Shown: piece by piece, positions 28,263 to 31,893 of the stretch
How the letters are laid out: each line of letters begins with the position of its first letter
Numbering within the stretch: position 1 is the stretch's first letter
NCBI GenBank assembly: GCA_046758745.1
Contig: JBHIAV010000029.1
Location: forward strand, 1-37,146
Direction of reading: 5' to 3'
DNA from: Gemmatimonadota bacterium
Lineage (GTDB): Bacteria > Gemmatimonadota > Gemmatimonadetes > Palauibacterales > Palauibacteraceae
Length of the DNA stretch: 37,146 nucleotides
Notes under the pieces: model-generated
Told to the model about the DNA's origin: nothing
The model's input: the letters and a program-made list of their open reading frames with translations, nothing else
Databases searched by the model: none
Program-made: the position numbers and the translations under genes

Positions 28263-29474
28263 TCAACCCGGTGTACGCGCCGGTCGGGGGTGCGGTTTCA
28301 GCGACCCCTCCTCCATAGCTGCCAGCGCGCGCTCCAGATCGGCGATGAGGTCATCCGCGTCCTCGATCCCGATCGAGAGGCGAACCAGGCCGTCGGTCAG
28401 CCCCATTCGCTCCCGCCGTTCCGGCGGAACCGAAGCGTGCGTCATGCGGGCGGGCACGGAGATGAGGCTCTCCACGCCACCGAGGCTCTCGGCCAGGGCG
28501 AAGATCCGCGTGCTCGACGCGAAGCGCTCCGCACGTTCGGCCGAGCCCGTCTCCACCGTGATCATCCCGCCGAACCCCCGCATTTGACGGCTGGCCAGCT
28601 CGTGCTGCGGGTGGGAGGAGAGCCCCGGGTAGAGGACGGATCGCAGGCCCGGCTGGCTCACGAGGTGTTCCGCGACCCGCGCGGCGTTCTCGCAGTGCGC
28701 TCGCATTCGCACGTGCAGCGTCTTGGTGCCGCGCAGCACCAGCCAGCAGTCCATGGGTCCCGGAACGCCCCCCGTCGCCTTCTGCTGGTAGAGCAGCTTC
28801 TCGGCGAGCTCGTCCGAGTTCACGACGAGCGCGCCGCCGATCACGTCGCTGTGCCCGTTCAGGTACTTGGTGGTGGAGTGCACCACGATGTCGGCCCCCA
28901 GGGCCAGCGGCTGCTGCAGGGACGGGGTGGCGAAGGTGTTGTCGACGGAGAGGAGGGCGCCGCCCCGGTGCGCGATCTCGGCGCACGCCGCGATGTCACT
29001 GAGCCGCATGAGCGGGTTGGTGGGCGTCTCGATGTGCACGAGGCGCGTGGAGGGCCGCATGGCCCGGTGGAGCGCGTCGGCGTCCGAGGTGTCCACGAAG
29101 CTGAACTCGATCCCGAAGCGGGCCCATACCGTGCGGAACATGCGCTCTGTGCCGCCATACACGTTGTCCTCGCACACCACGTGGTCGCCGGCGGAGAGCG
29201 TCGCTTTGAGGAGGGCCTCGATGGCGGCGAGCCCCGAGGCGAACGTCGCGCCGTGACGGCCTCCCTCCAGCGCCGCCAGGTTCGCCTCGAGCGCCGAGCG
29301 GGTGGGGTTCGACACCCGGGCGTACACGTTGCCGCGCCGGGGCCTGGCTACCCCGTCCTGAACGTAGGTCGAAGTCTGGAAGACCGGGGTCATGATGGCC
29401 CCCGTCACCGGATCAGGCTCCTGCCCGGCGTGAACCGCCCGCGTGGCGAAGCCGTCGGTCTCGCGCAGCTCCAT
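28263..29474 (-). CDS. Cystathionine gamma-synthase/lyase family PLP enzyme
   Basis: YARVSNPT, ETPTNP, VDNTF, HSTTKYLNGHSD (PLP lysine), AESLGGVESL, RLSIGIE. Confidence 0.95.
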   Translation of the reverse strand: MELRETDGFATRAVHAGQEPDPVTGAIMTPVFQTSTYVQDGVARPRRGNVYARVSNPTRSALEANLAALEGGRHGATFASGLAAIEALLKATLSAGDHVVCEDNVYGGTERMFRTVWARFGIEFSFVDTSDADALHRAMRPSTRLVHIETPTNPLMRLSDIAACAEIAHRGGALLSVDNTFATPSLQQPLALGADIVVHSTTKYLNGHSDVIGGALVVNSDELAEKLLYQQKATGGVPGPMDCWLVLRGTKTLHVRMRAHCENAARVAEHLVSQPGLRSVLYPGLSSHPQHELASRQMRGFGGMITVETGSAERAERFASSTRIFALAESLGGVESLISVPARMTHASVPPERRERMGLTDGLVRLSIGIEDADDLIADLERALAAMEEGSLKPHPRPARTPG

Positions 29475-29540
29475 CGCACCGCTTCCGTTTCTCCGTTCGC
29501 CCGATCGTCCGTCGTGCTCCGTCGTCTCAACCTAACGTTG

Positions 29541-29599
29541 CCGCGGCCGGTCTCGAAACGCCGGCCGTGGCCCGAGGCGCCGGTTCGAGGACCGGCGCC
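29541..29599. repeat. Two tandem hairpins upstream of the tnpA-like gene
   Basis: CCGCGGCCGG-tctcgaaacg-CCGGCCGTGG (29541-29570) and GGCGCCGGT-tcgagg-ACCGGCGCC (29576-29599). Confidence 0.55.
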
Positions 29600-29718
29600 G
29601 CGACACACGGGCTGCAGGGTGCGAGCCGGCGCGTGAGACATGGCCCGGTGCGGGGGGCAAGGACCGCCTCCCGGCGCCTGGATGACGAGCGGATGACCGT
29701 TCGTGGCATCGTTCGGGC

Positions 29719-30264
29719 ATGATCCAACCGCCTCTCCCCTCCGTCCCTCCCCGGCCGGCTCGGCCGCTCGGGTCTCCTGACGAAGACGCCCCGACGGGGC
29801 CTGGCGAAGGGCTCCCCGCGGTGGAGCGGGCGACACACCGCCTCTACGCGGTGGTCTGCTGGACGACGCTTGGGCGGCTGCCGCTCATCCGATCGGCGGT
29901 CCGGGCGACCATGGAAGGACACCTCATCGCTCTCTGCCGCCGGCTGGATGTCGAGCCCGTCTCGGTGACCGTCCTCTGCGATCGGGTTCACCTCCTCGTC
30001 CGCACCAAGCCGACCCACTCGATTGCCCGGCTCGTCGGTGCCCTGAAGCGGGGAGGGCGCGAGTCCCTGCAGAGCGCCGGTGAGCCGGTGCGTTGGGGTG
30101 CCGGCTTTGCCGCCATCTCGGTCGGGAGCCGCGAGGTTCGCCGGGTGATGCGCCTTCTCGCCGAGCTGGCGGAGCGCGAGGAACGACGTGAGGGGGGCCG
30201 CCGCCGGCTCCGCCGCCGCCCGCGCGGGCCGAACACGGGGGGATCGGCTCTTCGGCCCCGTTGA
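29719..30264 (+). CDS. IS200/IS605-family TnpA (Y1/HUH)-like protein with degenerate catalytic residues
   Basis: LYAVVCWTT..RLPLI, DRVHLLV, SIARLVGALK, WGAGFAAISVG follow the Y1_Tnp layout, but HUH reads RVH and YxxxQ reads LLAEL. Start could be GTG 29821. Confidence 0.75.
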   Translation: MIQPPLPSVPPRPARPLGSPDEDAPTGPGEGLPAVERATHRLYAVVCWTTLGRLPLIRSAVRATMEGHLIALCRRLDVEPVSVTVLCDRVHLLVRTKPTHSIARLVGALKRGGRESLQSAGEPVRWGAGFAAISVGSREVRRVMRLLAELAEREERREGGRRRLRRRPRGPNTGGSALRPR

Positions 30265-30383
30265 CACCCCGTTGAACCGGCTCCGTCGAGCGCCGGCTCT
30301 GTGCGGCCCGGCGCGCCGCCCGCCGGCTCCGCGGGGCCGTTGATGGGCCGTCCGCCGGCCCTCTCCGGGCCGTTGACGGGCCG
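30258..30383 (+). repeat. CCGTTGA motif cluster including a 17-nt direct repeat
   Basis: CCGTTGA at 30258, 30269, 30337 and 30370; GGGCCGTTGAYGGGCCG at 30334-30350 and 30367-30383. Confidence 0.6.
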
Positions 30384-30402
30384 CGAGGAAGGCGAGTAGT
30401 GT
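30373..30402 (+). promoter_or_regulatory. Putative sigma70 promoter for glmM-glmS
   Basis: TTGACG-N18-TAGTGT. Confidence 0.5.
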
Positions 30403-30416
30403 ACGGGGGAGCGCCC

Positions 30417-30453
30417 GCGGCCCACGGAACCTCGCCGGGGCCGTTGTTTTTTT
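30417..30453 (+). terminator. Intrinsic terminator-like hairpin upstream of glmM
   Basis: CGGCCC-a-CGG / CCG-GGGCCG stem with a 7-nt loop, followed by TTGTTTTTTT. Confidence 0.65.
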
Positions 30454-30498
30454 CCGGGGCCGCCCGAACGGTTCCGCCCAAGCGAATCGCGGAGAGGC

Positions 30499-31893
30499 GT
30501 GTCCGATTCTCTGATCGTCTCCGCCTCGGGCATCCGGGGCGTCTTCGGCGAGGGGCTCACGCCGGAGGTCGCCGCTCGGTATGGGGCGGCGTTCGGCACG
30601 CTGCTCGCCGCCGGGACCGCCGATCGAACGGACGGCTACGTGCTGGTCGGACGAGACTCCCGCGTCTCCGGCGCCCTCCTGGCGGAGGCGGCGACGGCCG
30701 GCCTGCGGGGCGCCGGCATGGAGGTGCGCGACCTCGGCGTGGCGCCCACCCCGACGATCCTCCTCGCTGCCGGAGACGATGAGCGGGCGGAGGGCGCCCT
30801 CATCGTCACCGCGTCGCACAACCCGATCGAGTGGAACGGCCTTAAGCTGGCAGGGGCGGACGGACGGTTCCTCTCCCGGGAGGCGGGCCTCCGGGTGCAG
30901 CGGTTGTACCGGGAGGGCTCCACCCACCCGCGCTGGGAGGGGGTCGACAGACGCGAGCCGCTCGCCGGCGCGATCGACCACCACGTAGAGCGAATCCTTG
31001 CCCTCCCTCTCGTCGCCCGCGAGGCCATCGCCCGCCGCCGCCCGCTGGTCGCACTCGACTGCGTCCGGGGGGCGGGCGGGATGATCATGCCGGCGCTCCT
31101 CCGCCGGCTCGGGTGCGACGTGTTGGGCCTCGACCTCGAGCCGGATGGGAGATTCCCTCGCGATCCCGAGCCGACGGCCGAGAACCTGGACCGGCTCAGC
31201 GCGCTGGTACGGGAGGGAAGCGCCGGGGTGGGTCTGGCCGTCGACCCCGATGCCGATCGGCTCTCTCTGGTCGACGAGGGCGGCACCCCGATCGGAGAGG
31301 ATTGGACCCTCGCGCTTGCGGTGGAGTACGTGCTGTCCGTGGGGAGCGGTCCGGTCGTCACCAACCTCTCGTCCAGCCAGTGCATCGAAGACGCGGCGGA
31401 GCGCGGGGGAGCACTCTGCCTTCGGACGGCGGTCGGTGAGGTGAACGTGGCGGAGCGGATGGCCGAGATCGGTGCCGTGATCGGCGGGGAAGGGAACGGC
31501 GGGGTGATCCTCCCCCGTCTGCACCTCACCCGCGACGCTCCGCTGGCGGCGGCCCTCATCCTGAGCTTGATTGCCGAACGGGAGCGCGGTATCGGGGAGA
31601 TGCTGCGGGCGTGGCCGCGCTACCACATGGTGAAGCGCCGCTGCCCACGCCCGTCTGCGTCGCTCGAGACGCTCTACCGGGCCCTGCGCCACGGGGCCTC
31701 GCCGGGAGCCGATACGGACGATACGGACGGCGTGTGGCTGGCGTGGCCGGAGCGGCGCGAGTGGGTGCACGTTCGTCCATCCGGGACGGAACCGATCTTG
31801 CGTGTGGTGGCGGAAGCGAAAAGCGAGGCGCGGGCGGAACGGCTCGCCGGCTGGGCCGAGAGCGTGGCGGTGGGGATCGAAGGGACGGGCTGA
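30499..31893 (+). CDS. glmM: Phosphoglucosamine mutase (alpha-phosphohexomutase)
   Basis: SGIRG, GRDSRVSG, TASHNP, DPDADR, GGEGNGG, RPSGTEP; adjacent to glmS. Confidence 0.88.
   Translation: MSDSLIVSASGIRGVFGEGLTPEVAARYGAAFGTLLAAGTADRTDGYVLVGRDSRVSGALLAEAATAGLRGAGMEVRDLGVAPTPTILLAAGDDERAEGALIVTASHNPIEWNGLKLAGADGRFLSREAGLRVQRLYREGSTHPRWEGVDRREPLAGAIDHHVERILALPLVAREAIARRRPLVALDCVRGAGGMIMPALLRRLGCDVLGLDLEPDGRFPRDPEPTAENLDRLSALVREGSAGVGLAVDPDADRLSLVDEGGTPIGEDWTLALAVEYVLSVGSGPVVTNLSSSQCIEDAAERGGALCLRTAVGEVNVAERMAEIGAVIGGEGNGGVILPRLHLTRDAPLAAALILSLIAERERGIGEMLRAWPRYHMVKRRCPRPSASLETLYRALRHGASPGADTDDTDGVWLAWPERREWVHVRPSGTEPILRVVAEAKSEARAERLAGWAESVAVGIEGTG

Follow-up and report, generated by a model that had tools for sequence, protein, structure and literature searches.

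The closest described relatives of the gene treated here are the TnpA transposases of the IS200/IS605 insertion sequences (ISs) and the REP-associated tyrosine transposases (RAYTs, also called TnpA_REP). In the survey by Quentin et al. (2018, PMC6006769), the RAYTs are described as keeping both the HUH motif and the catalytic Tyr, the latter in a Y-x-x-x-NP signature, and as co-occurring with repetitive extragenic palindromes (REPs). Its Table 1 also sets apart a subclass 1.2 of the TnpAY1 proteins, which are of low copy number, lack IS features and display the signatures DH[IV]H, WQ and YIKNQKEHH; sequences devoid of the motifs were removed from the survey as probably non-functional, so that motif-less Y1 proteins were not studied in it. 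The present report concerns such a motif-less Y1 protein. Its gene is an open reading frame (ORF) of 181 aa lying between a cystathionine gamma-synthase family gene (henceforth the synthase gene) and glmM in a stretch of 37,146 nucleotides from a Gemmatimonadota bacterium (assembly GCA_046758745.1, contig JBHIAV010000029.1, forward strand), the whole of which we term the window.

Two precedents from farther afield are of relevance. TldR (PMC13622181; 10.1101/2023.11.30.569447) is an RNA-guided, nuclease-dead derivative of TnpB that was experimentally shown to be a repressor. It resembles the window protein in stemming from a gene of the same IS family, namely the partner of tnpA, in having lost catalysis, and in its retention by the host for the sake of binding, the role that we propose below for the window protein. 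In the latter, the loss of the catalytic residues extends over a clade under purifying selection. The two differ in that their folds are unrelated (RuvC in TldR, HUH here) and in that the role of the window protein is putative. The origin-binding domains of the papillomavirus and polyomavirus helicases are inactivated HUH/Rep derivatives. A further article (PMC13595969) speaks of “inactivated derivatives” of rolling-circle endonucleases. The viral proteins offer a precedent for an HUH domain that serves as a DNA-binding module without nicking, but they belong to another HUH branch (Rep rather than Y1), are viral and helicase-fused, and are compared here by description only. By analogy, TldR would be the nearest concept for the window protein and the viral inactivated HUH domains a more distant precedent. 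A full-text literature search, mostly without subscription journals, turned up no account of a Y1 clade that lacks the motifs and is nevertheless conserved.

Against this background, the window protein shares with the IS200/IS605 TnpAs (ISDra2, IS608 and IS200) the fold, the Y1_Tnp domain and a similar size (a core of ~125 aa). However, it has neither the HUH motif nor the Tyr, is encoded by a single, vertically inherited copy at a fixed locus, is accompanied by no conserved subterminal hairpins and no tnpB, and fell below the cut-off of the NCBIfam IS200/IS605 equivalog NF033573 (38.4 versus 55 bits); in every functional respect it is thus something other than an IS200/IS605 transposase. With the RAYTs it has in common the low copy number, the retention by the host outside classic ISs and the vertical inheritance. 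Unlike them, its family has lost both motifs, and in the window's genome the flanks of the gene do not recur elsewhere and a REP-like pattern has no match at one mismatch or fewer, which places the protein outside the RAYTs as regards both catalysis and REPs. The signature of subclass 1.2 is that of the proteins of ~140 and ~287 aa that come next after the window's family in our profile search and which likewise are without IS features; the window's family differs from it in the absence of the H and Y signatures and in having WG, WA or WS instead of WQ.

Fold and catalytic residues of the Y1 protein

The ORF begins with an ATG and runs without interruption to its stop codon. The gene caller had placed the start at a GTG near 29821 (P0001, 147 aa). 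Comparison of the loci supports, in place of that GTG, a start at the ATG at 29719, because this is the first ATG after a conserved tandem repeat, in frame and 20–24 nt away, in 18 of the 19 loci compared. The resulting protein comprises a disordered Pro/Arg-rich N-terminal tail (approximately residues 1–38), a core (residues 40–160) and an Arg-rich C-terminal tail. Its core passed the Pfam Y1_Tnp profile (PF01797), for which the cut-off is 23 bits, with a score of 33.3 bits and E 5.8e-8; the match comprises residues 40–143 of the protein and spans positions 3–114 of the 121 in the profile. Since a phmmer search of the PDB sequences with the single protein was weak (E 0.035), a family profile and a fold search were used for the structural comparison. 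The AlphaFold2 model, for which a 25-sequence alignment served as input, has a mean predicted local distance difference test score (pLDDT) of 82.6, with ten-residue block means of 91–97 across residues 41–160 and disordered tails. Among the Foldseek matches listed for it, all 30 with E <= 0.001 are Y1 transposases: the top match is the ISDra2 TnpA (2xm3, E 7.9e-9), and the matches to ISDra2, DR_0177, IS608, Sulfolobus tokodaii and IS200 TnpA range from E 8e-9 to 2e-6. The target-normalised template-modelling scores of the best matches are 0.57–0.70, and the RAYT structure 4er8 is a weaker match (E 4.1e-4). Both its sequence and its fold thus place the protein in the Y1_Tnp family. A homodimer prediction yielded a complex score of 0.74, to be read next to the 0.77 of one unrelated control.

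At the HUH strand, the window has the codons gat-cgg-gtt-cac, of which cgg (29983–29985) puts an Arg in the place of the first His; through the family profile, the resulting D-R-V-H aligns to the D-H-V-H of the ISDra2 TnpA. The Tyr column was anchored by aligning the same profile to the ISDra2 TnpA chains all the way from the HUH strand through the Tyr helix. There, the Arg of the family consensus, which is Leu146 in the window, aligns with Y in the wild-type ISDra2 protein and with F in the Y132F entry. For the catalytic columns we aligned four groups jointly, namely 19 genomic orthologues, 46 metagenomic family proteins (those scoring 100 bits or more), 40 more distant representatives and 21 paralogues from the family f3 (here, f1 is the window's own family, f2 its sister family and f3 another family of the same class). 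Among the orthologues, the first His is replaced by Arg in 18 and retained in one, the second is His in 15, Arg in three and Gln in one, and the Tyr column contains Arg in 15 and Ala, Leu, Phe or Gln in one each, with Tyr in none. The metagenomic proteins have Arg (41), His (3) or Gly (2) at the first His, and here too Tyr is found in none. The first His is present in all 40 of the distant representatives, 39 of which have the Tyr, and in all 21 of the f3 paralogues, 20 of which have it; the pooled active relatives accordingly have the His in 61/61 and the Tyr in 59/61. The aligned helix of the window's family has no conserved Ser, Thr or Tyr and no Y...NP signature, and the loss of the catalytic residues is, on these alignments, a property of the family as a whole.

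Other parts of the protein are strongly conserved. The Trp of the W motif is retained in 65/65 family sequences, and across the 25 aligned sequences W48, T50, E66, C73, R74, P80 and W126 are invariant, with R89 kept in 90% or more; the conserved basic residues are R74, R75, R89, R141 and R145. Variation at the HUH motif within the family includes a sub-lineage (L007/P0019) in which an unaltered D-H-V-H is combined with Phe at the Tyr column; D-H-V-Q is found in two others. As an observation apart from this family, the PDB entry 2fyx (DR_0177 of Deinococcus radiodurans, a “putative transposase”) reads P-D-Y-V-H-L-L at the HUH strand and keeps a YIENQ helix, and is thus another natural Y1 protein, with a Tyr replacing the first His.

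A preliminary description of the window, made from its letters alone, had read the gene as an intact but catalytically dead IS200-type transposase. The uninterrupted frame (181 aa from the ATG at 29719), the D-R-V-H with its Arg codon and the RLLAEL in place of the YxxxQ helix all stood up, the last through the alignment to the ISDra2 chains. A Y1_Tnp profile match and a structural resemblance to the ISDra2 and IS608 TnpAs, which it had named as checks, were likewise obtained, the former above the cut-off and the latter with the predicted model.

Locus, descent and relatives in the phylum

A word-indexed protein search gave 24 matches, 23 of them at 44–63% identity, and an all-protein profile search brought up 23 proteins below E 1e-30, which constitute the dead family. 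In their sources, some of the matches from the word-indexed search are labelled “transposase” (in Gemmatimonadales or Gemmatimonadota bins) or “RayT”, there being homologues with the Joint Genome Institute (JGI) label “REP element-mobilizing transposase RayT”. Next in the profile search come proteins of ~140 aa and tandem two-domain proteins of ~287 aa with the pattern DHVH...WQ...YIxNQxxHH. In the latter (P0046, P0048, P0049, P0051, P0052, P0056 and others, ~270–300 aa), two Y1 domains, each with a DHVH and a YIxxQ..HH helix, stand in tandem; for a transposase that normally works as a dimer, such a fusion of two domains in one chain is seemingly unusual.

Exactly one match (140–216 bits) was found in 17 of the 24 f1 genomes, and none in the 16 genomes of f2. 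The frame is open in 17/17 of these f1 loci, as it is in all 19 orthologues overall, and both flanks, i.e., the divergent synthase gene and glmM, are visible in 15 of the 17; of the remaining two, one ends at a contig end and the other is without the synthase gene within the fetched stretch. In the window, glmS is also among the neighbours. A further genome from a sample of the phylum (L036) has the same arrangement. Conversely, all five f1 and all five f2 genomes that were inspected and lack the gene have the synthase gene next to glmM, at a distance of 139–256 bp. Since its flanking genes directly adjoin one another where it is missing, the Y1 gene has been inserted into a divergent promoter region that was there before it.

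In a tree of the two flanking proteins, genomes with the gene occur throughout f1, and the five non-carriers of f1 are nested among them, which, given one gain, amounts to at least four losses within f1 (five changes in all). In a protein tree, the 19 orthologues form one clade (Shimodaira–Hasegawa-like approximate likelihood ratio test, SH-aLRT, 99) with respect to four active relatives, and the main groupings of the flank tree are recovered, as would be expected for vertical descent of the gene. Ratios of nonsynonymous to synonymous substitution rates (dN/dS) were computed by the Nei–Gojobori method for the Y1 gene alongside glmM and the synthase gene. Of the two closest pairs, L017/L019 has 0.16 for the Y1 gene, 0.13 for glmM and 0.14 for the synthase gene, and L009/L011 has 0.10, 0.14 and 0.10, respectively. 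The preliminary description had proposed precisely to look for syntenic orthologues upstream of glmM and to determine dN/dS; the former exist and the latter, at 0.10–0.16 in the closest pairs, speaks for selection on the protein. Its remark that the gene has housekeeping neighbours and no tnpB also agrees with what we found, the neighbours being the synthase gene, glmM and glmS. The ORF is not an IS copy in the course of decay, nor is it an open frame that arose by chance.

No partner element came to light. The window's genome has no Y1_Tnp match besides the orthologue, and of 15 f1 genomes scanned, 10 gave any Y1_Tnp match, each only to the orthologue, with coinciding coordinates. No tnpB adjoins the Y1 gene, and the TnpB domain PF07282 has no match above its cut-off in the window's genome (the best reaching 18.2 versus 26.3 bits). 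Searches of the gene's flanks against the rest of the genome returned only chance matches of 15–24 nt (E 0.014 to 0.83), and there are no high-copy 14-mers in the genome, the top count being 13 and all of the top words being G+C-rich and simple.

Elsewhere in the phylum the picture is different. In a sample of 401 genomes, 93, including the window's own, have matches at E <= 1e-8. Eight of the 30 further f1 genomes match at 130–183 bits, and 78 of the 166 f3 genomes match at about 39–93 bits, with 1–5 matches each at different loci. The 21 f3 copies that we read (L037–L057) have intact motifs in all but one, and many f3 Y1 ORFs are preceded by REP-like units consisting of a G+C stem, a TAAA, TGAA or TTAA loop, and then CTCGGC, as seen, for example, within some 110 nt before the Y1 ORFs of L037, L038, L041, L044, L048, L052 and L054. 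Searched for with a narrow 19-nt pattern at 0–1 mismatch, the unit has 29, 22, 10 and 6 matches in four f3 genomes (G063, G221, G144 and G278, respectively) and 0 in the window's genome (G000). This looks like a REP/RAYT-type system of f3 that would be undescribed in this phylum. The phylum thus contains active REP-associated relatives, and in the window's family the dead copy at its fixed site is the only one.

Possible roles of the protein

The observations from which any interpretation has to start are the Y1 fold, the synteny, the single copy, its vertical inheritance, the purifying selection, the family-wide catalytic loss and the lack of any IS or REP partner. Because the cutting residues have been lost and yet the gene has been kept in place under selection, the family probably retains it at this one spot for a new, non-cutting job. 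We hence propose, as the more probable explanation and with some confidence, that the gene descends from a Y1 gene of the IS200/RAYT type, was exapted and lost its nuclease activity, and that its product is a non-cleaving binder of nucleic acid. In this proposal, an ancestor of the family would have acquired a Y1 gene that came to lie between the two flanking genes, the synthase gene on one side and, on the other, glmM with its -35 box immediately following; the acquired copy would have turned immobile and single-copy, to be inherited vertically thereafter. The metal-binding first His would have given way to Arg, and the Tyr nucleophile to Arg in most lineages and to Leu in that of the window, with the fold being kept. 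With the HUH motif and the Tyr both lost, the protein could therefore no longer cut and rejoin single-stranded DNA, and the DNA-binding surface of TnpA, together with an Arg-lined active-site pocket, would bind nucleic acid without cleaving it. The Arg residues at the His and Tyr positions and the other conserved Arg residues would fit a pocket that holds a phosphate or a nucleotide and does not cut. The gene itself would be expressed, from a promoter with a conserved tandem WTGA repeat, as a transcript with a short leader or none.

Several points weigh against this proposal. What suggests the binding of nucleic acid is the modelled fold taken with the conserved Arg residues (R74, R75, R89, R141 and R145). 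The gene has been lost at least four times within the family, and any role must be dispensable because several lineages do without it. In the distant pairs, the dN/dS of the Y1 gene rises to 0.22–0.55, at a range where dS is saturated and the values of all three genes rise. The second His is variable enough that no remnant of a metal site is conserved. With D-H-V-H retained in the sub-lineage L007/P0019 and L007 basal in the gene tree, the catalytic losses may have differed in order and number from those pictured here. Finally, the genomes are metagenome assemblies, in which multicopy IS or REP elements can be missed; that of the window is 87.4% complete and in 130 contigs.

A more specific version of this proposal, the probability of which is contained in that of the general one, is that the protein acts as a local regulator that binds the WTGA(S) repeats at its own promoter and the GTTGAC(G) at the -35 box of glmM, thereby autoregulating itself and tuning glmM-glmS. 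It finds some encouragement in the position of the tandem WTGA repeat, which occurs 20–24 nt upstream of the ATG in 18/19 loci against a low background, was seen in 2/21 of the active paralogue loci (from -250 to +600 nt of the domain start) and, on inspection by eye, was missing from the 10 intergenic regions of the empty sites; further, the stop codon of the Y1 gene lies inside the TTGAC of the glmM -35 box in 9/17 loci, and five CCGTTG copies lie downstream of the gene in the window. However, the glmM promoter (TTGACG-N17-TAnnnT) predates the Y1 gene and works in genomes without it, and the gene would not be required for glmM expression since it was lost at least four times while glmM and its promoter stayed. 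The repeats may also be mere promoter elements, such as a -35 box, and with six sites of this architecture in the genome there is no regulon signal. Moreover, what Y1 proteins are known to bind is single-stranded hairpins rather than duplex direct repeats. Taking both sides together, we regard such a regulator as unlikely, if still the readiest of the specific roles to entertain. A related and yet more doubtful idea is that the protein is a sequence-specific, nuclease-dead TnpA counterpart of TldR, in which the Arg at both catalytic positions would clamp the DNA and which would bind the WTGA(S) repeats and the glmM -35 box; were this true, a TnpA/TldR-like factor would link the glmM-glmS operon for cell-wall precursors to the signal controlling that factor. 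The preliminary description had similarly thought of a regulator of glmM-glmS, under the more general heading of a protein retained as a non-catalytic hairpin binder. Of that heading, the retention without catalysis is upheld by the four tests that the description had named, and the hairpin binding finds no support in the comparison of loci, as the hairpins flanking the gene in the window are not conserved there.

It is also conceivable that the protein is still an enzyme, for instance a non-canonical nuclease or ligase or some other catalyst operating through the conserved His40, Cys73, Arg89 and His91. The invariance of C73, R74, W48, T50, E66, P80 and W126, the near-invariance of R89, and a purifying selection as strong as that on the housekeeping flanks could be read in this sense. 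We nevertheless hold it to be improbable: both of the known catalytic elements are gone family-wide, the second His varies too, and the aligned helix offers no conserved Ser, Thr or Tyr. An ISDra2 TnpA mutant of the Y132F type is cleavage-dead; one sub-lineage of the window's family has the same Tyr-to-Phe replacement, and the title of PDB entry 2xo6 describes the ISDra2 TnpA Y132F as bound to its cleavage site. Still fainter is the case for a dominant-negative protein or repressor that binds the hairpin ends of active IS200/IS605 or REP/RAYT elements without cutting them and so silences invaders, which the preliminary description had raised in the form of an inhibitor of active IS200/IS605 elements. 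The active, REP-flanked relatives of f3, with both HUH and Tyr, are suggestive here, as is the fact that the window's family shows none of them. Yet there is nothing for the protein to inhibit, it being the sole Y1_Tnp protein of the window's genome, as it is of each of the 10 genomes, out of 15 scanned in f1, that gave any match, with no tnpB above the cut-off and no REP-like match; furthermore, the sister family f2 is also free of Y1 genes without having this protein. These findings disfavour such an inhibitor. Least probable of all is that the gene has no function, being a decaying IS relic, a frame kept open by a high G+C content, or promoter or spacer DNA of glmM. The genome is indeed G+C-rich, long chance ORFs overlap the region in other frames, the gene was repeatedly lost, and NF033573 was not reached; against this stand the 19/19 open frames, the low dN/dS of the closest pairs, the residues invariant across 25 sequences, the confident fold prediction and the ATG at a fixed distance from a conserved motif.

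The proposal of a non-cleaving, exapted Y1 protein matters for several reasons. The host-retained Y1 transposases known so far, i.e., the RAYTs, retain their catalytic residues, and a whole motif-less Y1 clade with one copy per genome, conserved synteny, vertical inheritance and purifying selection bears the signature of exaptation without catalysis. It offers a clean natural system for asking what the TnpA fold does beyond cutting single-stranded DNA, all the more as the same phylum provides for comparison active REP-associated relatives, a dead syntenic orthologue and repeated losses that left intact empty sites. For these genes, the annotation labels “transposase” and “RayT” are misleading.

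The surrounding DNA

The coordinates of the gene, its motifs, its neighbours and the elements discussed below are collected in Table 1.

Table 1. Features of the Y1 gene and its surroundings, in window coordinates
Feature	Position	Strand	Basis
Cystathionine gamma-synthase family gene, divergent upstream neighbour	28263..29474	-	NF005871, 543 bits, cut-off 513
Two adjacent G+C-rich hairpins between the divergent promoters	29540..29603	.	DNA fold, window-specific
Tandem repeat ATGAC-N6-ATGAC, 21 nt upstream of the ATG	29682..29697	+	Locus comparison
CATCGT, -10-like nAnnnT hexamer, ending 6 nt before the ATG	29707..29712	+	Read by eye
Catalytically dead Y1/HUH-fold gene, TnpA-derived	29719..30264	+	ORF, Pfam, AlphaFold2, Foldseek, orthologues, dN/dS
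Y1_Tnp domain match (residues 40-143)	29836..30147	+	Genome-contig profile search, 34 bits
Degenerate HUH motif D88-R89-V90-H91, Arg replacing the first His	29980..29991	+	Sequence, column comparison
R145-L-L-A-E-L150, aligned with the Y-x-x-x-Q helix; L146 at the Tyr column	30151..30168	+	Alignment
CCGTTG(A/T) cluster, five copies (30255, 30266, 30334, 30367, ~30440)	30255..30446	+	Sequence
TTGACA containing the stop codon TGA (30262-30264)	30260..30265	+	Locus comparison; -35 box of the glmM promoter in orthologues
Candidate glmM promoter of the window: TTGACG (30373-30378), 18-nt spacer, TAGTGT (30397-30402)	30373..30402	+	Analogy with the conserved promoter
glmM (archaeal-type phosphoglucosamine mutase), downstream, same strand	30499..31893	+	TIGR03990, 466 bits, cut-off 439

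Across the family, the tandem repeat upstream of the Y1 gene follows the pattern WTGAN-N5-7-WTGAN, with ~11 nt from start to start. Each of the 18 loci that have it contains a single occurrence, which lies shortly before the ORF and on its coding strand, and in all 18 the first ATG that follows is the in-frame one mentioned above; over the window's genome, the pattern has a background frequency of 0.062 per kb per strand. The repeat may be a -35-like element or an operator. A hexamer of the form nAnnnT ends 5–7 nt before the ATG in 15 of the 18 loci when read by eye, leaving no space for a Shine–Dalgarno leader. We infer that the mRNA would be leaderless or have a very short leader, since the -10-like hexamer is so near to the ATG and there is no room for a Shine–Dalgarno sequence. 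The sequencing runs listed for this stretch are DNA contig runs of a single study, with none of RNA among them. A search of the window's genome for a regulon of the motif returned six sites with the layout of motif, spacer and ATG. At three further places in this genome, C4:16693(-), C43:22905(-) and C59:6589(-), a tandem WTGA repeat stands 20–24 nt before the ATG of a long ORF (447, 778 and 508 aa, respectively); these may share a promoter type or a regulator with the Y1 gene.

At the other end of the gene, the nine loci with the stop TGA within a TTGAC (of the 17 read) include that of the window. The glmM promoter that this element belongs to in the orthologous loci is also present in the genomes without the Y1 gene. 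In the window, this promoter seems to be shifted farther downstream, to 30373–30402. A consensus scan for promoters and terminators gave no sites at its own thresholds, and the promoters proposed here come from the comparison of loci instead. The CCGTTG(A/T) copies of the window include a pair spaced by 11 nt (30255 and 30266) and a pair of 17-nt repeats spaced by 33 nt (30334 and 30367). CCGTTGA is not enriched over the window (8 matches versus 7.99 expected, four of them within 30255–30376), and the cluster is missing from the other 16 orthologous loci. The copies look like local duplications, specific to the window, of the -35 region of glmM.

The two hairpins between the divergent promoters fold with -30.2 kcal/mol (z -2.63), and 1 of 200 shuffles was as good. 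We considered them as conserved ends or REP relics and rejected this: a search for a hairpin followed by CTCGG gave hits scattered over the 19 loci, many of them inside coding sequence, but none at the corresponding position in any of the 18 loci besides the window. The word CCGGTCTCGAAACG (29548–29562), which in the window forms the loop region of the first hairpin, is shared with L005 and there, too, lies between the synthase and Y1 promoters. A scan of 29300–30700 with Rfam returned only mir-874, at 26.8 bits versus a threshold of 74, which we take to be a chance match. Close by, at 29520–29533, the window has an AAG(G/C)TA(G/A)G-like element (CAACCTAACG, + strand) that is conserved near the start of the synthase gene in L002–L024; read on the minus strand, it gives the synthase gene a TAnnnT -10 box, and loci with the Y1 gene and loci lacking it both have the element.

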